A stretch of DNA of 44,722 bases from a virus (IMGVR_UViG_3300045988_086091); one strand, 5' to 3'. Counted from the stretch's first letter, positions 161-44,722 are shown. Translations and numbers: made by a program. Notes: generated by a model from the letters alone, not told the origin.

Positions 161-270
161 AAAGAGTGATAGTCAGGTTTTGGGGTGACTTCCTCGGATT
201 TGGGGAGTTTTCTTCTCCCTGGCCTCTCAGAGCCCGTCAGAGCGCCGCAAGGCTGCACAGGGGAAAGTAT

Positions 271-1407
271 ATGCCCAGGACGCCTCTCGCGTGTCCTGGG
301 CCATCCTGGCCCGCGTGTGGCATTAAATTCATCGACCATGGGGAGGCGATTTCTATTCCGGCCTATAAAGACGAATTGCGGAATACCTGGTATGCATCCT
401 TCTACTACACGGACTGGCAGGGGAAGCGGCGGCTCAAGAAGAAGCGGGGCTTCCAGCGCAAGAAGGACGCCCTGGCCTTCGAGGATGAATTTCTCAAGGT
501 CCGGGCCCGGAGCTGCGACATGACCTTCCGGTCCTTCCTGGAGATATATCTCAAGGACATGGAGCCGCGGCTCAAGCAGAGCACCATGCAGAACAAGCGG
601 TATCTCTACGAACACCGCATACTGCCATTCTTCGGCGATCTCAAGCTGAACGAGATCACGTCGGCCCACGTGCGCCATTGGCAATCCGATCTGCTGGCGG
701 AGAACGTGGCGCCGACCTACGCGAAGACGATCAACAACCAGCTTTCCGCGGTCTTCAACTACGCCTGCAAATACTACGGCCTGGGCACAAATCCCGTCAG
801 AATGGCCGGCACGATAGGGAAGAAGAACGCCTCCGAGATGTCCTTCTGGACCGTTGATGAGTTCAACCAGTTCATCGGCCACGTGAAGAAGCTTCCGGCC
901 AGGACGGGCCTGTCGGTCCTGTTCTGGACCGGCCTCCGCATAGGGGAGCTGCTGGCCCTGGCCCCGTCCGACATCGACCTGGAGGCCCACACCCTGACCG
1001 TCCGCAGGACCTTCCAGACGATAGACGGGAAGGAGATCATCACGGAGCCGAAAACGCCAAAAAGCCGCCGGGTGGTGCCGCTGCCGGAGAAGCTATGCGA
1101 GGACATCAAGGCGTACATGGCCGCCCTCTACGAGCCCCAGCCAGACGACCGGCTGTTCCCGTACACGAAGCACTACTTCCGGCAGCAGATGTTGAAGGGC
1201 TGCCAGGCGGCCGGCATGGAGCCGATCAGGCTCCACGATCTCCGGCACTCCCACGCCGCCCTGCTCATCCGACTTGATACTCCTATCCTGCTGGTGAGCG
1301 AGCGCCTGGGCCACGAGGACATCGAAACGACCCTCCGCATATACGGCCACCTGTACCCCTCCGCGAACGACGAAACGGTCAAAAAACTGGATGATCTCAT
1401 GCGGTAA
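271..1407 (+). CDS. int: Tyrosine recombinase (phage integrase) with arm-binding-type N-terminus
   Basis: Lies in ORF 166-1407. Catalytic-region motifs HDLRHSHAALL and GHEDIETTLRIYGHLY. N-terminal YKDELRNTWYASFYYTDWQGKRR. Start is ambiguous: ATG 271, or ATT 355 lying 8 nt behind GGGGAGG. Confidence 0.9.
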   Translation: MPRTPLACPGPSWPACGIKFIDHGEAISIPAYKDELRNTWYASFYYTDWQGKRRLKKKRGFQRKKDALAFEDEFLKVRARSCDMTFRSFLEIYLKDMEPRLKQSTMQNKRYLYEHRILPFFGDLKLNEITSAHVRHWQSDLLAENVAPTYAKTINNQLSAVFNYACKYYGLGTNPVRMAGTIGKKNASEMSFWTVDEFNQFIGHVKKLPARTGLSVLFWTGLRIGELLALAPSDIDLEAHTLTVRRTFQTIDGKEIITEPKTPKSRRVVPLPEKLCEDIKAYMAALYEPQPDDRLFPYTKHYFRQQMLKGCQAAGMEPIRLHDLRHSHAALLIRLDTPILLVSERLGHEDIETTLRIYGHLYPSANDETVKKLDDLMR

Positions 1408-28121: not shown

Positions 28122-28586
28122 TTATCCAAATAGGCTGCACTGGTCGAAGGACGGAACCTTCACCATGCCCGCCGTCTTGATGAAGCGGTCATAAGGCTGA
28201 GCCTCAATTCCATACCGGGCATACATGGTCCGGGTCTTCGGGTTGCTCTCCACAGCGTAGTAGAGGCTCCCGGTGCTCCCGTGCTTCGGGAAGATGAACC
28301 GCTGGAGGGCGCTCTCCTTGAAGACTGGGGGCTCCCCGTTGATGTCGTTGAAGTACCACTCCTGGGGCTGCCAGCCAGTCTTCCGCTTGATGTTCTCCGT
28401 GGTCTGCTTCATCTGGTAGTCCGGGCGAGCCGTCACGATGATAACATAATCATCCTTGATCGCCTCGATCAGGTCGGCCCGGTATTCCTCGGCCTCCATG
28501 CGCCGGGAGAAGGGGCGAAGCATACGGGTTGTAGCTTGGTTTCCCACAAGGGTATAGTTGAGGTCTAAAAGACAAATCCGCTTCAT
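28122..28586 (-). CDS. HAD-superfamily-like hydrolase (tentative)
   Basis: N-terminal LLDLNYTL (DxDxT-like with Asn at the second Asp position) and VTARP motif. Confidence 0.4.
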   Translation of the reverse strand: MKRICLLDLNYTLVGNQATTRMLRPFSRRMEAEEYRADLIEAIKDDYVIIVTARPDYQMKQTTENIKRKTGWQPQEWYFNDINGEPPVFKESALQRFIFPKHGSTGSLYYAVESNPKTRTMYARYGIEAQPYDRFIKTAGMVKVPSFDQCSLFG

Positions 28587-28624
28587 AGTAGGTTCTCCTT
28601 TTCGGTTGTTATTTTCGCACTATT

Positions 28625-28653
28625 ATTATACCACTTTCCGGGTCGTTTGTCGC
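28625..28653 (-). promoter_or_regulatory. Sigma-70-type promoter for the HAD-like gene
   Basis: On the - strand: GCGACA, 17-nt spacer, TGGTATAAT (extended -10). The leader begins with GUGCGAAAAUA. Confidence 0.5.
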
Positions 28654-28683
28654 AGGTTTTACCAAAAAAGAGCGGATTTTTGC

Positions 28684-28718
28684 AACAAAAAATCAGCCGG
28701 AGATCGTGCTACCGGCTG
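28684..28718 (-). terminator. Rho-independent terminator
   Basis: Stem CAGCCGG/CCGGCUG (28694-28700 with 28712-28718), 11-nt loop, then AUUUUUUG on the - strand. Confidence 0.65.
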
Positions 28719-28758
28719 CTGATCGTGAAGGGAGTATTCAGGTGCAACTTCACATCAT
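28684..28758 (-). ncRNA. Candidate 75-nt small RNA or late-operon leader RNA (6S-like)
   Basis: Bounded by the promoter at 28765-28793 and the terminator at 28684-28718. First hairpin (28725-28753) exposes UUGCACC and CUCC in a 17-nt loop. No ORF. Confidence 0.4.
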
Positions 28759-28764
28759 AAAGGC

Positions 28765-28793
28765 ATTATAACACGTAAAATTGCACCAGTCTA
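28765..28793 (-). promoter_or_regulatory. Sigma-70-type promoter (candidate late promoter)
   Basis: On the - strand: TAGACT, 17-nt spacer, TGTTATAAT (extended -10). Embedded in the GTGCAA repeat array. Confidence 0.5.
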
Positions 28794-28823
28794 TTGCACG
28801 ATTTTTGCACCGATAAATTGCAC
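28781..28823 (-). repeat. Four direct GTGCAA repeats at 13/11/13-nt spacing
   Basis: TTGCAC on the + strand at 28781, 28794, 28805 and 28818. An inverted fifth copy (GGTGCAAC) lies at 28741-28748. Confidence 0.9.
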
Positions 28824-28827
28824 GCCG

Positions 28828-29337
28828 TCACTTTATGGCTTCCGCTCCGTATAGCCAGACCGCGAGCCTTTGCACAAGCCGCTTCCGGTTCCTCCAGACG
28901 GTTGTTGTGTCGCATGGAATGAGCTCCGCCACGCGCTCATCCGGGAGATCGTCAATGTACCTGCCGGTCACGGTCAGGTAGTAGTCGTCCTTCTCGATGG
29001 TGGCAAGGGCCCGCTCCATGGCCTCGATCTCGTATTCATCCGCGGCGATGGTGGCCTCCAGGTCTATCACCGCTGCCTCGAAGATTTCCTCCGGGGTAAG
29101 CCGGACCCCCGACTTGCTGAACCGGGTAATGCTCTTGCTCCGGCCTCTGGGCCCGTACTGCTTGAGCTCTTCCAGGCGCTCCTTGTCATCATCCCGCTTA
29201 TTCCGCAGGACCGGCAGCGCGTAGAGGCGGCGCTCGGTGGCCTTGAAGGCGTCCTTGGCGGTCCTCTCCGCGGATATGCGGCCATCCTCAACGGCCTGGC
29301 GGATGATGTCTTGCGTGCTCTCTTTTGGTTTGCCCAT
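28828..29337 (-). CDS. RinA/ArpU-like late transcriptional activator (sigma-70 region-4-like HTH)
   Basis: ATG 29337 behind GGGAGG. C-terminal DERVAELIPCDTTTVWRNRKRLVQRLAVWLYG. Located upstream of the terminase block. Confidence 0.6.
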   Translation of the reverse strand: MGKPKESTQDIIRQAVEDGRISAERTAKDAFKATERRLYALPVLRNKRDDDKERLEELKQYGPRGRSKSITRFSKSGVRLTPEEIFEAAVIDLEATIAADEYEIEAMERALATIEKDDYYLTVTGRYIDDLPDERVAELIPCDTTTVWRNRKRLVQRLAVWLYGAEAIK

Positions 29338-29345
29338 TGAAATGT

Positions 29346-29402
29346 CGCCTCCCGTGTGGTAAAATAGCTTTGTCACGGGCTGTCTTCCCTTCGGGGGAGG
29401 CG
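29346..29402 (-). promoter_or_regulatory. SD-sequestering structure in the leader of the late activator gene
   Basis: 8-nt CGCCUCCC (29395-29402) is complementary to the SD region GGGAGGCG (29346-29353). An alternative pairing is CCCGUG/CACGGG. Confidence 0.35.
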
Positions 29403-39317: not shown

Positions 39318-40369
39318 CTCCGCGCTCCTTTCATCTTCTCCTGGCACTCAGGGCAGAGGACGCGGCCATAGGTCCGCTGGCTGTATCCGGCGATGTCCTC
39401 CGGCGTCCACTTCCTGCCGCTCCGGGCCTGCCCGCCGGTGATCTGCCGGTGGCAGTCGGAACAGTAGATACCCTGGGGAGGCTCCGGGGCCTCCGGGGGT
39501 TCCTCCCAGGCCGGCGGTCCGTTGTACTGAGGCTCACGGCTCCAGCTATCTTCCGGCTCTTCCGGGGCCTCCGGCCAGGGCATTTGCCCCGGTGCCTCAT
39601 CGTCATAGGGCGGAATTACTTCGGCCTCCTGGGCGGTAGGCAGGGCCGCCGGTGCCGCGTGCCCAGGCATTTCAAACAGCATTCCCATGGACTGGAGGTA
39701 GCTGCTGGCGACCGCCTGCTTGATCTCCGGCGCGTCCAGGTTGGGGACCACACGCGCCACCACAAACGGCTTTTTGAGGTCTTCAAGGGAGTATGTACCG
39801 GCAAGACCCAGGGCGGCCCGGATGGCCCGCATGAAGGCTTTACTTTCCGCCATAGCGGTTCTGTGGGGTAGGAAGCGCCGGTACTGCTGCCCGTTGATAC
39901 CGTCCTTCATGCCGGAGGCTTCCAGGGTGCAGTCGATTTCCTTCGTGGCCTTCATCATGCGGAAGCCCCCGGAGGGCTCCGGCACTCGAATGGTAACGGT
40001 TACGGCGACGTCGTGGACGTGCTCGCAGTTGCCGCACACCCTCGGCTTCCCGGTGGCCCGCGCCATTTCAATGCACCGCTGGCAGCCCTCAGTCCGTCCG
40101 GGCTGGGTGTCCACAATGCTGATGTTGGCAGCCGCGGCCAGCTTCATCCCGGCCACCTTCGTGATGGCGAATGCGCCGCTGGACCGCTCAAAATAGATGT
40201 CCTTGCTCGGCCCGTGGTTGGAGCTGTCCTGCCTGGTGTCGAGCTGAACCTCGGAAACGGTGATCCGCTGGAGGTTGGACGCCACCTGCATAGTGGTGAC
40301 AGGCACCAGCACGTTATACCTGTCGGTGGGGTACTTATTGAGCTGGACAATGGTCTGACTTAAATCCAT
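39314..40369 (-). CDS. Putative single-strand annealing protein (Rad52/ERF-like) with two zinc-ribbon motifs
   Basis: ATG 40369 behind AAAGGAG. AESKAFMRAIRAALGLAGTY resembles the SSAP core. CQRC..CGNC and CSDC..CPEC motifs. Adjacent to the nuclease gene. Confidence 0.45.
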   Translation of the reverse strand: MDLSQTIVQLNKYPTDRYNVLVPVTTMQVASNLQRITVSEVQLDTRQDSSNHGPSKDIYFERSSGAFAITKVAGMKLAAAANISIVDTQPGRTEGCQRCIEMARATGKPRVCGNCEHVHDVAVTVTIRVPEPSGGFRMMKATKEIDCTLEASGMKDGINGQQYRRFLPHRTAMAESKAFMRAIRAALGLAGTYSLEDLKKPFVVARVVPNLDAPEIKQAVASSYLQSMGMLFEMPGHAAPAALPTAQEAEVIPPYDDEAPGQMPWPEAPEEPEDSWSREPQYNGPPAWEEPPEAPEPPQGIYCSDCHRQITGGQARSGRKWTPEDIAGYSQRTYGRVLCPECQEKMKGARR

Positions 40370-40386
40370 GATGATCTCCTTTCGAC

Positions 40387-40416
40387 TTGACACAGCCGGG
40401 TGGAGAGTGCTATAAT
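40387..40416 (+). promoter_or_regulatory. Near-consensus sigma-70 promoter on the + strand (antisense to the early operon)
   Basis: TTGACA (40387-40392), 18-nt spacer, TGCTATAAT (40408-40416). Confidence 0.55.
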
Positions 40417-40422
40417 ACTAAC

Positions 40423-40487
40423 AGTAGGTTAGCTATTTTCGCACTTGGCCGCTTCCCGTTGCACCGGGGGCGGCCTTTCCCTTTCCC
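40423..40487 (+). ncRNA. Candidate oop-like antisense RNA
   Basis: Starts downstream of the promoter at 40387-40416. Contains a 6+4-bp hairpin (40447-40475) with a UUGCAC loop, followed by CUUUCCCUUUCCC. Antisense to the 3' end of gene 40433-40933. Confidence 0.35.
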
Positions 40488-40933
40488 AGGCCAATCAACA
40501 TAATGTCCGTGATACTCTCTTCCAGCTTCCGTAGGAACACGAGCACGTCCTCGAAGTCCTGGCGCTCATCCTGGGAGATCACGCCGTCGAAGGCGATCTC
40601 TTCCAGGCGGTCCGCTACGGCCTGCCCATCCCCCAGTAGGCGGCTCACCCGCAGGGTGGCATGAGGGAGAGGACGGTCCGTGGCCGTCCTCCCGGTGGCC
40701 TTGCCTACCGGGCAGGTGGCGCAGTAGCGTGGGAGAATGTCGGGGCTTTTGTAGCACTCCGCGTAGACCATGACGTCTTCCGGCTCCATTTCGACGTCCC
40801 CGCGCTCATGCCGGCCTATCGTTTCTGGGGAGAACGGAACCGCCGTTGACGCCGTTTCCCTATTTGCATATCCGGCCCTGATACGTGCCTCCCTCAGATA
40901 TGAGGGAGGTATCTTTTTTATCGTTGCAGACAT
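40433..40933 (-). CDS. XRE-family HTH regulator
   Basis: N-terminal LREARIRAGYANRETASTAVPFSPETIGRHERG. Ends with TAG inside repeat copy A. Confidence 0.6.
   Translation of the reverse strand: MSATIKKIPPSYLREARIRAGYANRETASTAVPFSPETIGRHERGDVEMEPEDVMVYAECYKSPDILPRYCATCPVGKATGRTATDRPLPHATLRVSRLLGDGQAVADRLEEIAFDGVISQDERQDFEDVLVFLRKLEESITDIMLIGLGKGKAAPGATGSGQVRK
40447..40475 (-). promoter_or_regulatory. GUGCAA-loop hairpin, copy A
   Basis: Outer stem GGCCGC/GCGGCC, inner stem CCCG/CGGG, loop GUGCAA. Followed by GGCCAAGUGCGAAAAUAG. Confidence 0.6.
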
Positions 40934-40965
40934 TCAGGTCATCTCCTTTCTGGGGTATAATTTAA

Positions 40966-41330
40966 TCAGCAGATAGGAGCGATCTGCTCAATCCGGCGGG
41001 CCGCGCGGAACGCATTGTCGGTAAGCTGCCGCTGCCACGCCCCTTGAGAAGGGGCCCACCGGAAGCCCTCGCTCTTGAGCTCCGCCCGGAGATCGGCGTC
41101 CGGCTTGCCGTCGAAGATGATCTGGAGCCGGTTCTCATCGGTGTTCACGACCACCTGCCCCCCGTCAAACTCCCAGCCCTCCGGGGCCGGTTCCGTCTGG
41201 CGCTCGGCCAGGGCGGCAGCGCGACCGCCTTCCGATAGGAGGCGGTCGCGCTGCCCTCCTTGTAGTCGGAAAAACTGTTCATGTTCTTCGCCCGGCGGGC
41301 GGCGTCTTTGTTGATGGGATAGTAGGTCAT
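40966..41330 (-). pseudogene. Gene split across two frames (N-terminal MTYYPINKDAARRAKNMNSFSDYKEGSATASYRKAV; C-terminal NRLQIIFDGKPDADLRAELKSEGFRWAPSQGAWQRQL)
   Basis: ORFs 41145-41330 and 40966-41154 overlap out of frame. The second frame is open upstream back to about 41235. Confidence 0.4.
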
Positions 41331-41352
41331 GTTATTTTCTCCTTTCAGTTGC

Positions 41353-41745
41353 TCAGACGGTTGCACCCGCCATCTTTCGAGGTTCCACTCTTTTCCCGAT
41401 GAAGCAGTTGCCGCAGTAGTACCACAGGCCGTCGCGCTGGGAGAAGGTGGTATAGGTGGGCCTCCAATGCCCGGTGTCCGGGTCGTACTGGTGGCTGACC
41501 GGCTCCCCGCACTGGACCAGCGTCGCGGAGTTCGTGGCCGGAGGCAGGACGTTGAGGAAGTTCTCGACGATCTCATCCGTCACGAGGTCCCCAGGGCGGG
41601 CGGCCTTCTCGAAGTCACCGGCGCGGCGCCAGTCGTCCATCGTTATGATCTTGCGCTCCGCTGCTCCAGCCTCTTCCCTCCGGCAGTCGCAGACTTCGCA
41701 CGGGTCAAGGGCTGCTCCGCAGTAGTCGCAGAAGTAGTTGTGCAT
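41353..41745 (-). CDS. Hypothetical protein with N-terminal zinc-ribbon motif
   Basis: ATG behind GGAAAGGAGAG. Contains CDYCGAALDPCEVCDC. Confidence 0.55.
   Translation of the reverse strand: MHNYFCDYCGAALDPCEVCDCRREEAGAAERKIITMDDWRRAGDFEKAARPGDLVTDEIVENFLNVLPPATNSATLVQCGEPVSHQYDPDTGHWRPTYTTFSQRDGLWYYCGNCFIGKRVEPRKMAGATV
41356..41371 (-). promoter_or_regulatory. GUGCAA-loop hairpin, copy D
   Basis: Stem GGCGG/CCGUC with a G-U pair on the - strand only. Spans the stop codon of 41353-41745, about 25 nt upstream of ATG 41330. Confidence 0.5.
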
Positions 41746-41975
41746 TTCGTTCTCTCCTTTCCCTGGGTCGTCCAGGTCTTGAGCTCCCAGCCGCAGAACA
41801 CCAGAATGAAGGCGTAGGCCGGGATACAGAAAGCTCCGGCGTTCTCAATCTGGAGCTGTATCATGTCGATCATCAGCAGGACCAGGCGGGCGGTCACCAT
41901 GGCGGCCAGGGCCAGCAGCGCCATTCGGTAGTAGCTCCGAACATAGGCGCGAGTTCTCTTTCGCTTTCTCTCCAT
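41643..41975 (-). CDS. Two-TM membrane protein
   Basis: ATG behind AGGAGG. The hydrophobic helices are followed by a tail that overlaps the next gene by 103 nt. Confidence 0.5.
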   Translation of the reverse strand: MERKRKRTRAYVRSYYRMALLALAAMVTARLVLLMIDMIQLQIENAGAFCIPAYAFILVFCGWELKTWTTQGKERTKCTTTSATTAEQPLTRAKSATAGGKRLEQRSARS

Positions 41976-41984
41976 GATGTCCTC

Positions 41985-42209
41985 CTATGCCCGCTTGCGG
42001 GCGGCAGTTTCCGGCTCTTCCAGGCCGTACCGCTCGTTGAAGTATCGCTTGATGACGCGCCCTTCGCAGGTGCATTTCCCCTTGGCTTCCAGCTCCCGGT
42101 TGAGCGAGGCGATCACCTTGTAGCTCTTCGATCTGGAGTAGCCCAGCAGGCGCATGATGTCCTCCACGAAGTAGAACATATCGCGGGAGGTCTTCAAGGT
42201 CGCCGCCAT
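41985..42209 (-). CDS. Small HTH DNA-binding protein (excisionase/MerR-like fold)
   Basis: FYFVEDIMRLLGYSRSKSYKVIASLNRELEAKG...RVIKRYFNERYG. Confidence 0.55.
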   Translation of the reverse strand: MAATLKTSRDMFYFVEDIMRLLGYSRSKSYKVIASLNRELEAKGKCTCEGRVIKRYFNERYGLEEPETAARKRA

Positions 42210-42212
42210 AGG

Positions 42213-42419
42213 TCACGCCTCCTTCCGGGAAAAGTTCTCCATGAACTCGCGGACCACGGGAATGAGCTGGTGCCCAGCGCAGCGCCCGGTGGTCGTTTCG
42301 ACCAGGGTCGTGTACTTCACACCGGACCGCTCGGCCAGTTCCTTGACCGTCATGCCGTTTTGAGCGGTGAACACGCGGACCTCAATGCCGAAATCCGTCT
42401 TAGGCTTGCGAATTGCCAT
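42213..42419 (-). CDS. Cro-like XRE HTH protein
   Basis: 68 aa. Contains NGMTVKELAERSGVKYTTLVE. SD AGGAGG. Confidence 0.6.
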   Translation of the reverse strand: MAIRKPKTDFGIEVRVFTAQNGMTVKELAERSGVKYTTLVETTTGRCAGHQLIPVVREFMENFSRKEA

Positions 42420-42687
42420 AGTCGTTTCCTCCTTCTTGATTTCCTTGTTTTTGAGGCATTTTCGTGTTATACTGGAATTGGTTCCAGGTGACGCGGTGCG
42501 GGACGAAGGTAAATTCGGCCTGTACCGGGTCGCAGGGCTCGCCGGTGCGGAAGGTCCCGTTGTCGATGAGGACGTGGGTTCCGACGATCCCGTAGTCGTC
42601 GGTCTTGCTCACGTCGATGCGGATGGTGGGGTACTGCTTGAAGTTGATCGCCTTGGCGATCTCGGTTCTGGTTTCGAGGAATTTCAT
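42400..42687 (-). CDS. Hypothetical 95-aa protein
   Basis: ATG 42687 behind AAAGGAG, preceded by hairpin copy B. Confidence 0.55.
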   Translation of the reverse strand: MKFLETRTEIAKAINFKQYPTIRIDVSKTDDYGIVGTHVLIDNGTFRTGEPCDPVQAEFTFVPHRVTWNQFQYNTKMPQKQGNQEGGNDYGNSQA

Positions 42688-42709
42688 GGTTAGCTCCTTT
42701 CGCATTTGG

Positions 42710-42727
42710 CCGCCGTTGCACCGGCGG
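42710..42727 (-). promoter_or_regulatory. GUGCAA-loop hairpin, copy B
   Basis: Stem CCGCCG/CGGCGG, loop GUGCAA, then GGCCAAAUGCGAAAGGAG. Lies 22 nt upstream of ATG 42687. Confidence 0.6.
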
Positions 42728-42728
42728 G

Positions 42729-42937
42729 TCACTTCCGATTGTGGATTTCTTCGAGCTCGTCGAGGGTCGCCATATCGCCTCCAGGGCGTCGATCATGTTC
42801 TGCAATCCGTCGGCCAGCTTCTTTGCCTCAGGATGGGCCCCGGCCCCTTCCAGGGCCTTGTCCTGCATTTGGCGGTATTCGTTGATCTTGGATTGCACGC
42901 CCTCACGGGCGTACATCAGGATTTTCAAGTAGGTCAT
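42729..42937 (-). CDS. Small helical hypothetical protein; the natural end appears to need a frame change
   Basis: ATG 42937 is ATGA-coupled. The frame as given runs on to 42467 across two genes. An alternative frame ends MATLDELEEIHNRK* at 42729, just before hairpin B. Confidence 0.35.
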
Positions 42938-43407
42938 CCGATCTCACCCCCTCCAGCCGTGGCAGCGTTGATATACTCGAACATATCGAAGTAGTGCTCC
43001 CTGGTGAGCTCGTTCCGCATATCGTAGAGCTGTTCCCGGAGCAGTTTCCGGGCCACCTCTTTCGAGGTCATCATGCCGATCACGCAGTCCACATAGCTGT
43101 ACGTGAATTTCTCGCCCTTCATCTCTTCCCGGACGTCAATCCACTGGACGCCCTTGTAGACCTTCCCGGTAAATCGGGTGATGATTTCGTCGATCTCCGC
43201 TTCCTGCTGCCGGATACTGTCATTGACCGCGCAGCGGACGAAGGTGTTTTCCATGCCGCTGTCCCGCATTGCCTCGCAAGCGCCGATAAGCTGCTGGTAG
43301 CAGTTGAAGGCGATCCGGCGGTCATCGCTCTGCTTCTCGAAGTCAGGCATGAACTCGGCATATTTCCGGGAGATCAGGTCGGCCTTCTGTTCGTAGTGGT
43401 TCATCAT
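42934..43407 (-). CDS. First early-operon protein (hypothetical, 157 aa)
   Basis: ATGATG at 43402-43407 behind AAAGGAG, preceded by hairpin copy C. Confidence 0.6.
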   Translation of the reverse strand: MMNHYEQKADLISRKYAEFMPDFEKQSDDRRIAFNCYQQLIGACEAMRDSGMENTFVRCAVNDSIRQQEAEIDEIITRFTGKVYKGVQWIDVREEMKGEKFTYSYVDCVIGMMTSKEVARKLLREQLYDMRNELTREHYFDMFEYINAATAGGGEIG

Positions 43408-43431
43408 GGTAGGTAGCTCCTTTCGCACCTG

Positions 43432-43447
43432 GCCGGTTGCACCCGGC
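43432..43447 (-). promoter_or_regulatory. GUGCAA-loop hairpin, copy C
   Basis: Stem GCCGG/CCGGC, loop GUGCAA, then CCAGGUGCGAAAGGAG. Lies 24 nt upstream of ATG 43407. Confidence 0.6.
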
Positions 43448-43807
43448 GATCTGGTTCCCCCTCCCGCTCTCACTTGTGCGGTAACTTCCGTTCATCCTAT
43501 GCGTACTCGGCCGGTCTTCACGGCTCATCCAGGTCCTCCGAATTTACGGCTCCACGCTGTTTCCGCTTTCTACCCGGCGAATACTTGATCGGCTATTCCT
43601 TGGCCCCCCTGCCAGCTTCTTTTTGGGCGGGTCACTCCGGGCGGTGTTCAGTTGTCGGGGTTTCTTGAGAAGGTGGGCTGGAGGTTGCCGTTCGTACCGC
43701 CGTTACCGCCTGCCGATCATCCCCGGAGCTTGCTCCGCTTCCGACCCGGCTTCCACTGCCGCTTCCTGTTTTATCCTCCGGCCCGCCTGGGCCTTTCCTT
43801 TTAACTG

Positions 43808-43837
43808 TTTACCTTATTTCTTCGGCCTGATTATATT
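43808..43837 (+). promoter_or_regulatory. Candidate repressor promoter, back-to-back with the early promoter
   Basis: TTTACC, 18-nt spacer, TATATT. Its -10 overlaps the -10 of the - strand promoter. Confidence 0.3.
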
Positions 43838-43863
43838 ATACTCCTCGAACACACGGAAGTCAA
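43835..43863 (-). promoter_or_regulatory. Early lytic promoter (PR-like)
   Basis: On the - strand: TTGACT (43858-43863), 17-nt spacer, TATAAT (43835-43840). Confidence 0.6.
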
Positions 43864-43873
43864 GTATATCTTC

Positions 43874-43904
43874 AAATAATTCCAGTCGAAAACTGGAATT
43901 ATTT
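43874..43904. promoter_or_regulatory. Perfect 13-bp inverted repeat AAATAATTCCAGT-N5-ACTGGAATTATTT (operator or leader attenuator)
   Basis: Lies between the early promoter -35 and the SD of the repressor gene. On the + strand it runs into TTTTT. Confidence 0.6.
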
Positions 43905-43918
43905 TTGGAGGTTTTTCC

Positions 43919-44560
43919 ATGGATTCAAGTGAACACGCCCGTTTAATAGCGAATAGAATAACCGAGCTTTCCTCTATTCGAGGAATTTCCATAAACCGTA
44001 TGCTGTCGGTAGCAGGTCTAAACAAATCGGTCGTAGATCGAATGAAAACCGGGAATATGCCTTCTGCTGATAAGCTCGCAGCTATTGCACAAGTTCTGGA
44101 CGTCCCCACCGAGTACCTTCTCGGAAGCGGCGTGTTTGAGAAATGGGACCTGCTGCTCCGGCAGAAGCCGGCGGTTCTAAGAGCCATAGTCGGGATGATG
44201 GAGGACTTGTCAAAGGCCCTGCCCTCCGGCACAGATGACCTATCCTTCGCAAAGCTCGTCAGCATTTTCAAAGTCGATCTGGAGGAAGGCAGCGATCCAG
44301 CGGGAACCGAGATACTGGTGATCTCACCCATCCCCACCTACGACACCCCGGAACCGGGCGGCTCTGAGGCTGCCCGTCTGGAGATAGAAAAAGCGCCCGC
44401 CCCGGAAATCTCCGAGAACGGGCGGGAAATGCTGGACCTATACGAGCGCCTTTCTGAGCGCGAGCAGCTTCTCTTGCTGGGGCGGCTCCAGGAGATGGTC
44501 GCCCCCATGCTCGGCGAAGGTAAAGGGGCTCCGCAATCCTCCGCCGGGAAGGCCGTGTGA
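43919..44560 (+). CDS. XRE-family repressor (cI-like)
   Basis: N-terminal HTH LIANRITELSSIRGISINRMLSVAGLNKSVVDRMKTG. Divergent from the early operon. SD GGAGG. Confidence 0.7.
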   Translation: MDSSEHARLIANRITELSSIRGISINRMLSVAGLNKSVVDRMKTGNMPSADKLAAIAQVLDVPTEYLLGSGVFEKWDLLLRQKPAVLRAIVGMMEDLSKALPSGTDDLSFAKLVSIFKVDLEEGSDPAGTEILVISPIPTYDTPEPGGSEAARLEIEKAPAPEISENGREMLDLYERLSEREQLLLLGRLQEMVAPMLGEGKGAPQSSAGKAV

Positions 44561-44603: not shown

Positions 44604-44625
44604 GTGGAAATCCGAGGTTTTCCAC
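44604..44625 (+). terminator. Hairpin downstream of the repressor gene (weak terminator candidate)
   Basis: Stem GTGGAAA/TTTCCAC with an 8-nt loop. No clear T-tract. Confidence 0.25.
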
Positions 44626-44636
44626 GATCAGCCCCG

Positions 44637-44722
44637 AAAATAGGGTCCGTATATGGACCTTATCAAAGAAAATAGGGTCCGTATATGGACCTTATCAAAG
44701 AAAATAGGGTCCGTATATGGAC
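44637..44722. repeat. Same 32-bp repeat family: two full units plus 22 nt of a third at the window end
   Basis: Units start at 44637, 44669 and 44701. 44669-44722 equals 1-54. Confidence 0.95.

Follow-up and report, generated by a model that had tools for sequence, protein, structure and literature searches.

In the viral DNA stretch IMGVR_UViG_3300045988_086091 (44 722 nucleotides (nt), hereafter the window), we analyzed a set of hairpins with the loop GUGCAA in the early operon, together with a candidate small RNA (sRNA) gene on the opposite strand. Their sequences indicate that three of the hairpins, B, C and D, form in the sense-strand RNA and are under selection, and that a fourth copy of the motif, A, belongs to a conserved candidate antisense sRNA as its terminator hairpin rather than being one more sense hairpin. 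The sRNA loop, UUGCAC, complements the GUGCAA loop of B, C and D, and the 5' part of the sRNA complements the start regions of B and C, suggesting an antisense RNA of the lambda OOP and P22 sar kind that would also act in trans, by loop–loop kissing and by occlusion of the Shine-Dalgarno (SD) sequence on start-associated cassettes. We hold this reading at just short of even confidence. That B, C and D are genuine selected features is very probable in itself, and the sRNA gene is quite probably one as well.

A preliminary description of this DNA had proposed four equivalent sense-strand hairpins that share one 8-mer upstream of early ribosome binding sites (RBSs). The 8-mer, GTTGCACC on the plus strand, was present at the four reported positions of 40458, 41360, 42715 and 43436, and a fifth copy was found on the opposite strand at 28741; the five copies compare with 1.32 expected, and none of 100 shuffles reached five. 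Each G[GUGCAA]C core was closed by the stem described for it. On the minus strand, 5 of the 16 GTGCAA hexamers were within stems of at least 4 bp against a background of 1.9% (P ~9e-6), and in 81-nt local folds the motif hairpins formed as had been claimed, with closing-pair probabilities of 0.76–1.0 and loops 0.92–1.0 unpaired. The sense-strand hairpins and the start regions behind them are as follows.

43432..43447, minus strand: hairpin C, GCCGG[GUGCAA]CCGGC; sense-strand fold of -10.6 kcal/mol, with the closing pair at probability 0.90 and the loop 0.95 unpaired
43405..43434, minus strand: cassette C, GGCCAGGUGCGAAAGGAGCUACCUACC followed by the AUG (43407) of a 157-amino-acid gene (phrog_38332)
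42710..42727, minus strand: hairpin B, CCGCCG[GUGCAA]CGGCGG; closing-pair probability 1.0
42685..42711, minus strand: cassette B, GGCCAAAUGCGAAAGGAGCUAACC followed by the AUG (42687) of a 95-amino-acid gene
41356..41371, minus strand: hairpin D, GGCGG[GUGCAA]CCGUC with a G·U pair; sense -8.0 versus antisense -3.0
41328..41355, minus strand: spacer and SD of D, UGAGCAACUGAAAGGAGAAAAUAAC followed by an AUG (41330)

The distances from hairpin end to ATG, described as 22–25 nt, were 22, 24 and 25 nt for the ATGs at 42687, 43407 and 41330, respectively. Hairpin C is the first hairpin downstream of an early leader of ~390 nt, which was not structured when the region 43400–43830 was tested as a structured RNA (z = +1.26), and hairpin B begins 2 nt past the TGA at 42731-42729. 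The block GGCCARRUGCGAAA, said to run into the SD at A, B and C, occurred as exactly three perfect copies of GGCCARRTGCGAAA beside these three hairpins; the part of the claim that concerns A did not stand, as the A block runs into the stop codon of a helix-turn-helix (HTH) regulator gene (AUAG versus GGAG in B and C), with the next ATG ~85 nt off.

Two probable frameshifts were noted on the minus strand next to these sites. At ~42731-42780, the open reading frame (ORF) 42937.. reads through hairpin B, and its natural C-terminus (…ATLDELEEIHNRK*) lies in another frame, ending at TGA 42731; at 40962-41330, the gene after D is a truncated, frame-broken form of a 285–370-amino-acid protein of the relatives. 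Both could be assembly errors or decayed genes. A fifth, weaker hairpin, GGCUU[GUGCAA]AGGCU, was seen at 28866-28881 on the minus strand inside the 3' end of the late-regulator gene and is kept in the closest relatives only.

Motif hairpins were found in at least 17 viral contigs and 39 metagenome loci, where hairpin and cassette together were captured in the 17 viral contigs by pattern search and many more were added by protein- and sRNA-anchored searches. Among the relatives found, the motif hairpin always lies on the sense strand of the early operon, starting 0–3 nt past a stop codon, or past the leader, and ending 1–20 nt ahead of GAAAGGAG. One loop is carried by ~13 different stems, including CCGG, CGCCGG, CAGCGG, GCCGG, CCGCCG, CGCCG, AGCGG, GGCCG and GACGG, and the wobble-bearing GCUGG/CCGGC, GGCGG/CCGUC and CCCCUG/CGGGGG. 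In an alignment of 14 distinct hairpins, 85.7% of the cells were paired versus 65% in shuffles, with double changes at three pairs (16 cells); 0 of 500 shuffles were as good and no slid register came near. All three wobble cases of the B/C/D type place the G·U pair on the sense strand, where the opposite strand would have A·C, and an ortholog of hairpin D has GACGG/CCGUC, an A-U pair replacing the G·U pair. The sense-strand fold was at least as stable as the antisense fold for every B/C/D-type hairpin (for example, -8.9 versus -5.0 in L010). Because these G·U pairs exist on the sense strand only, they point to a role of the hairpins at the RNA level, and the proposed selection for structure in the sense transcript is borne out for B, C and D by the invariant loop, the covarying stems and the strand-specific wobbles. 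A one-mismatch search for loop variants ahead of an SD returned GGGCAA only, in one clade (L085/L086); a generic search for CCGCCG-N6-CGGCGG-GAAAGGAG returned mostly unrelated phages and zero new family variants, and a literature search for the 8-mer returned primer-type matches only.

These hairpins might instead be generic intercistronic stabilizers or processing hairpins that protect 3' ends (or 5' ends, in a host with RNase J) or insulate the translation of neighboring cistrons, with the loop kept for structure or processing. GC-rich hairpins whose loops are unrelated do occupy the corresponding site, between the stop codon and GAAAGGAG ahead of the RBS, in all clades, even the motif-less ones; the start 0–3 nt past stop codons fits such a function, and the same arrangement is found in unrelated phages. 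We nevertheless consider this explanation improbable, as it gives no account of the eight invariant nucleotides (G-GUGCAA-C) over ~13 stems in 69–99% divergent phages, nor of a loop that is the complement of the sRNA loop.

The cassettes might also be recombination linkers at module junctions, resembling boundary sequences or the promoter(early) stem-loop (PeSL) elements of T4-type phages, with no role at the RNA level. The early gene content is mosaic, the cassettes do sit at variable-gene junctions as PeSLs do, and an identical B cassette was found in relatives ahead of three unrelated genes and behind differing upstream genes. The upkeep of homology, however, would fix stem and loop alike, whereas here the stems differ and the loop is fixed, and the sense-only G·U pairs point to RNA. 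The promoter that defines a PeSL is also missing: the promoter scan gave zero minus-strand promoters at B, C and D, where only 13–30 nt separate hairpin and ATG, no T run follows the B, C and D hairpins and none of them was flagged as a terminator on the minus strand. The suggested PeSL role was therefore discarded, for want of both promoter and terminator tail, and the linker explanation as a whole appears highly improbable.

An antitermination role of the nut/put type, also suggested in the preliminary description, fared no better. The hairpins, of 4–6 bp with a 6-nt loop, are downstream of the early promoter, their loop does not resemble GNRA, and they track RBSs and not promoters. A boxA search with YGCTCTTTA at up to one mismatch gave 11 matches versus 10.9 expected, none of them on the minus strand at 40.4–43.9 kb, and no CGCUCUUUA-like boxA was found within a few nt of any hairpin. 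The early ORFs gave no match to an antiterminator family, and no N-like protein was identified among them. With boxA missing, an N-like protein not found and the sites tied to RBSs, the nut-site reading was rejected.

Copy A differs from B, C and D in that it is inside the last codons of the ORF 40433..40933 and is preceded, on the plus strand, by a promoter. The features of this locus are as follows.

40433..40933, minus strand: HTH regulator gene (phrog_6499), its 3' end overlapped by the sRNA
40387..40416, plus strand: sRNA promoter, TTGACA, 18 nt, TGcTATAAT; 12/12 consensus match plus extended -10, reading into A
40423..40487, plus strand: candidate sRNA of ~65 nt with an inferred start site; 5' single-stranded part AGUAGGUUAGCUAUUUUCGCACUUG, terminator hairpin GGCCGCU-U-CCCG[UUGCAC]CGGGGGCGGCC, then UUUCCCUUUCCC
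40447..40475, plus strand: copy A, the putative sRNA terminator hairpin; the minus strand encodes the C-terminal tail AAPGATGSG of the HTH protein

All examined clades of HTH relatives, with protein identities as low as 61%, had the promoter. Across 11 clades its -35 element was invariant and its extended -10 element was TGnTAnnnT, with a spacing of TTGACA-17/18-TGnTAnnnT, while the spacer and flanks diverged. From these elements it appears to be a strong, constitutive-looking promoter of the sigma-A/sigma-70 type, directed against the early operon. In all 8 clades compared, the antisense strand gave the more stable A-type hairpin (for example, antisense versus sense energies of -26.1 versus -18.9, -24.6 versus -18.0 and -29.2 versus -21.9), and where the sense strand has C·A mismatches, the antisense strand has U·G pairs (L085, L089). 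An alifold consensus of the sRNA had 10 pairs, including U·G pairs present on the plus strand alone, and the 3' tail UUUCCCUUUCCC is pyrimidine- and U-rich. Given the greater stability of the antisense strand, its U·G pairs and the conserved promoter, copy A is read here as the terminator of an antisense sRNA; of the four hairpins proposed to be equivalent, B, C and D thus remain as sense hairpins upstream of RBSs and A does not.

Rfam yielded zero matches in the whole window at the gathering score and chance-level matches only for 40300-44000 at E up to 5, scans that presumably would have covered a c4 family. The phage FP_Brigit has a 28% HTH homolog, but no sRNA-like promoter or hairpin was found downstream of it. 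The -35 element of the sRNA promoter (TGTCAA on the sense strand) was seen within the loops of small inverted repeats such as GCCGC[UGUCAA]GCGG, at 40376-40392 of the window and at equivalent sites in L058, L069, L106, L119, L089 and L091; in several clades this repeat immediately precedes the RBS of the following early gene.

The 5' part of the sRNA complements GGCCARRUGCGAAA-GGAG-CUAACC to position -1 of the AUG, over 24 nt with one or two mismatches, at B and C. As the sRNA template is an SD-less paralog of the B and C cassettes, the sRNA is collinearly complementary to those cassettes. We ranked predicted targets by the cofold energy difference (ddG), including unfolding costs, over the 186 candidate start regions of the window (mean -7.2, standard deviation 4.6). 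B ranked first (ddG -32.4, z ~-5.5) and C second (-24.5), while D ranked fifth (-21.3) and the first late gene at 28586 sixth (-20.0). RNAduplex, which ignores accessibility, also placed B and C at the top but separated them poorly from GC-rich coding matches, and cofold ddG was used instead. In nine clades, the start regions of the same phage were the best or joint-best predicted targets of each sRNA.

The start regions have conserved SD–AUG spacers directly ahead of the AUG, namely CUAACC, AUAACUAACC or AAAUAACC, after GAAAGGAG, and the 5' seed of the sRNA and these spacers co-vary across clades, as in the following pairs.

spacer GCUAACC, sRNA 5' end GGUUAGC
spacer AUAACUAACC, sRNA 5' end GGUUAGUUAU
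spacer AAAUAACC, sRNA 5' end GGUUAUUU
spacer AUUAACCAACU, sRNA 5' end AGUUGGUUAAU

Within 81 kb, the L106 clade had 39 copies of the 10-mer that complements the 5' end of the sRNA, 38 of them directly before a start codon, and 0 on the other strand; the single mismatches to this 10-mer were A>G in 15 of 15 cases, each a U·G wobble in the duplex. In L106-L111, L118 and L119, which are without GUGCAA hairpins, we observed that each phage has five or six early genes with a common start region, GAAAGGAGAAAUAACC-AUG, whose final 10 nt exactly complement the 5' terminus of the same phage's antisense sRNA, a putative regulon of start-associated sequences without a kissing loop.

At the loops, the sRNA of L085 has UUGCUC and its targets GGGCAA, with pairing kept (G·U), and the sRNA loop of L262, UUGCAU, still pairs with GUGCAA. 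Several observations weigh against kissing and trans action. Loop co-variation was seen in the single clade L085, through a G·U pair, and no independent case was found in the other clades. Homologs of the sRNA elsewhere carry the loops CCGGGAA, UUGGCG, GUUGCAA, CCACGG, CUGCCA and UAGCAG, and a search for matching hairpins at early RBSs in these clades found none, so that kissing, if real, would be a clade-specific addition and not ancestral. The sRNA hairpin of L089 has GUGCAA, but the single early hairpin sampled there has the loop CGAAAC. Apart from the loop and a short seed, D-type sites match the sRNA little. Several A>G mismatches are at SD positions, where the SD-less A copy forces a difference, and the U tract of the sRNA terminator (UUUCCCUUUCCC) is poor. 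Finally, common descent of the paralogous cassettes, or concerted evolution, could explain part of the complementarity.

Some of the same observations bear on a different explanation, in which a sequence-specific RNA-binding protein of the phage or the host reads the GUGCAA loop on a G-C closed stem, either controlling the adjacent translation, as at MS2 coat and T4 RegA operators, or loading an antiterminator, as N is loaded on boxB; the loop match of the sRNA would then be a by-product, with A as one more such site. Hairpins recognized by proteins classically show an invariant loop on a freely covarying stem, the hairpin position is fixed beside the SD, and the freedom of the sRNA loop to vary in other clades implies that the sRNA itself needs no such loop. 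A binding protein nevertheless leaves the 24-nt extended complementarity of the sRNA to B and C unexplained, and the A hairpin is selected on the antisense strand and not on the sense strand that such a protein would read. There is no boxA beside the hairpins, and no RNA-binding candidate was found by phyletic profile, a search that covered only the neighborhood of the operon; the ORF that tracks the clade encodes a membrane protein (41643..41975). We regard a protein reader, which would include the phage translational regulator proposed in the preliminary description, as possible but rather unlikely.

The hexamer of the early hairpin loops recurs in the same orientation at the late promoter, in a control region with the following features.

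28586..28830, minus strand: late control region, consisting of GTGCAA repeats, promoter, 77-nt leader RNA, second promoter and late leader
28828..29376: sigma/extracytoplasmic function (ECF)-like late regulator gene (phrog_36; TIGR02937 E = 0.0015, below its cutoff)
28781-28823, minus strand: four GTGCAA direct repeats spaced by 13, 11 and 13 bp, around the -35 element of TAGACT-17-TGtTATAAT
28684-28760, minus strand: 77-nt late-leader RNA with two hairpins (z = -2.65), the first with the loop UUGCACC and the second a U6 terminator
28653..28625, minus strand: second late promoter, after the 77-nt leader RNA
28589-28622, minus strand: late mRNA leader AGUGCGAAAAUA...AACCUACU-AUG (28586), where AGUGCGAAAAUA is a 12-mer identical to copy A

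The late GTGCAA repeats are kept in all clades, including those with different or absent hairpins, and are probably DNA operators of the late activator. It is conceivable that the hairpin GTGCAA is likewise a single DNA operator for the sigma/ECF-like regulator, as the same hexamer, in the same orientation, stands four times at 11–13 bp spacing around the late -35 element and next to the regulator gene in all clades. We give this very little credence: the repeats stay GTGCAA where the hairpin loops are GGGCAA or GAGCAA or where the hairpins are missing, a double-stranded DNA site needs no covarying inverted repeat, and the spacing from hairpin to a -10-like element is not conserved.

The hairpins had further been suggested to be kissing targets of two GUUGCACC-bearing RNAs. 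Among the four suggested roles, this alone gained support, and for a single RNA, the putative antisense transcript of copy A, with its promoter in all clades. The RNA at 28.7 kb is specific to one lineage: its GUUGCACC, with the UUGCACC loop, is kept in the nearest relatives only, and since UUGCACC is missing from most hairpin-bearing relatives, this leader was rejected as a general kissing partner. The arrangement of this leader resembles that of a terminator placed close to its promoter and controlled by antitermination or by an activator. The first late gene is a predicted target of the copy A sRNA because AGUGCGAAAAUA and AACCUACU are perfectly complementary to the 5' part of that sRNA.

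Under the antisense reading that we prefer, B, C and D would be intercistronic stem-loops of the early polycistronic mRNA, each directly upstream of an extended SD, and copy A would belong to an antisense sRNA gene that overlaps the 3' end of the HTH regulator gene in cis, as lambda OOP does over cII. Kissing of the 6-nt loops on their G-C closed stems would nucleate binding, pairing would spread across the SD region, starting at the target hairpin's 3' side, and the resulting duplex would block 30S binding and initiation, possibly with cleavage by RNase III. A single sRNA would thereby repress several early genes together, and perhaps the first late one as well. An invariant loop with free stems is what would be expected if many targets must match one sRNA. 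The hairpins with their covariation and strand specificity, the conserved promoter and the ranked complementarity are seen in the sequences; sRNA production, kissing and translational repression are inferred. A wider proposal, toward which we are more reserved and lean somewhat against, is that, in a prophage family widespread among gut Oscillospiraceae, the OOP-like sRNA would be a master trans-repressor of a start-associated cassette regulon, with a 5' end exactly complementary to the conserved SD–AUG spacer of many early genes and of the first late gene, and that in one clade the terminator loop would have recruited kissing hairpins. If true, this would be the first mechanistic account of phage start-associated sequences, as an sRNA-addressable translation regulon. 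Confirmation that one sRNA acts on several starts through a loop–loop contact would show that phages of Gram-positive anaerobes can coordinate an early regulon by means of an sRNA, suggest a reason for identical sequences before unrelated genes, as in the start-associated sequences (SAS) of mycobacteriophages, and provide a compact, programmable hairpin-plus-seed module.

The genome in the window is complete, belongs to a temperate phage and has ~60% G+C. The plus strand encodes, at 166..1407, a tyrosine integrase with an arm-binding domain, and the minus strand carries all lysis, structural, replication and early genes. The start of the early operon is marked by the following features.

43919..44560, plus strand: CI-like HTH repressor gene, divergent from the early promoter
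43835..43863, minus strand: early promoter TTGACT-17-TATAAT, from the promoter scan

By sequence comparison, no cultured phage is close to the window: among GenBank phages, a 5.2-kb region query gave just a weak primase match in Faecalibacterium phage FP_Toutatis, and a query with the sRNA region gave zero matches. A genome scan with the motif gave 21 matches, most by chance and two of them real prophages, the near-identical motif-bearing prophages of Pseudoflavonifractor sp. Marseille-P3106 (scaffold LT827125) and of a Flavonifractor metagenome-assembled genome. Human-gut metagenomes commonly contain relatives. The host is a Gram-positive member of the Oscillospiraceae and the phage a temperate type of Flavonifractor/Pseudoflavonifractor, and these host-linked prophages make the proposed regulation testable.

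Arrays of 32-nt direct repeats, AAAATAGGGTCCGTATA(T/C)GGACC..., were observed at 1-118 and 44605-44722 of the window, which places them, across the circular junction, between the CI-like repressor gene and the integrase gene. Each unit contains a palindrome of ~16 bp, and from sequence and position the arrays could be attP arm sites or operators. The small membrane-protein ORF at 41643-41975 on the minus strand combines a basic N-terminus (MERKRKRTRAYVRSYYR) with two hydrophobic segments, shares ~100 nt with the next gene and was the only early gene to track the hairpin-bearing clade in the phyletic profile. An unrelated phage group (L148, L150, L153, L154, L157, L169, L170 and L176) has a similar GGCCGCCCCCG-N6-CGGGAGCGGCC hairpin with a second hairpin, GCGCCG[CGGGAA]CGGCGC, ~86 nt further on; in some members both hairpins have the same loop on different stems.

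Antisense RNAs of temperate phages are textbook cases in OOP, sar, c4 and P4 CI, the last of which is grouped with the c4-type antisense RNAs; to our knowledge, each of the known phage antisense RNAs acts on one gene or site, and almost all come from enterobacterial phages. The lambda OOP RNA is antisense to the 3' end of cII and the P22 sar RNA is antisense to the RBS of ant (PMC12197685). The candidate sRNA resembles both in being a short RNA from a strong promoter directed against the early operon; it would be like OOP in overlapping the 3' end of a regulator gene and stopping at a hairpin, and like sar in its predicted pairing with mRNA including the RBS. A promoter against the operon, a terminator hairpin, albeit with a weak U tract, and a short transcript overlapping mRNA, as in OOP- and sar-type RNAs, are all predicted here. 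It differs from them in being also complementary in trans to several paralogous start regions, with a loop–loop match, and in its Gram-positive Oscillospiraceae host; no relationship to either was found by sequence or by Rfam.

The c4 RNA of P1 and P7 is a phage sRNA encoded inside the operon that it controls, and its loop-exposed sequences pair with repeated RBS-flanking mRNA sites, the loop being a determinant of specificity (PMC12197685). Here too, a loop-exposed sRNA sequence complements repeated mRNA sites at the RBS (UUGCAC versus GUGCAA, and the 5' tail versus the SD region). In contrast to c4, which is processed from the sense transcript and has two loop sites and one target gene, the sRNA here would be a separate antisense transcript with one loop and a 5' tail and at least three predicted target cistrons, and the Rfam scans gave nothing. 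Lambda nut sites share with the hairpins a GC hairpin of ~15 nt, a conserved purine-rich loop and a location in early transcripts, whereas there are three or more sites here, each linked to an RBS and not promoter-proximal. In the PeSLs, a strong sigma-70 promoter and a terminator stem-loop define an intergenic cassette that runs from a stop codon to the start of a variable early gene and lies at mosaic junctions (PMC2839356); the cassettes described here have no promoter or U tract.

The closest analogy for the repeated start regions is provided by the SAS and extended SAS (ESAS) of Cluster K mycobacteriophages, short asymmetric repeats that stand in one orientation before the start codons of non-structural genes of different families (PMC3203893). 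Some have an upstream inverted repeat, for which RNA pairing was not supported, and an 'RNA or protein' binder was proposed (PMC3203893). The likeness lies in a conserved, one-orientation sequence directly before the AUG, as in the 38 of 39 copies before starts in the L106 clade. Here, in contrast, the stems covary and carry G·U pairs, and a complementary sRNA gene is indicated that is not reported for Cluster K. The start regions have no sequence relation to GGGATAGGAGCCC, and the comparison is one of analogy only.

Loop–loop kissing is established for R1 CopA/CopT, ColE1 RNA I/II and TAR-TAR*, which are plasmid or viral cis-antisense pairs with one target. Fully complementary loops of 6–7 nt on G-C closed stems and a collinear extension through adjacent single strands are common to these systems and to the pair described here, for which kissing is a prediction. 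What distinguishes the present case is one conserved sRNA gene complementary to several translation starts, together with a dedicated loop–loop contact.

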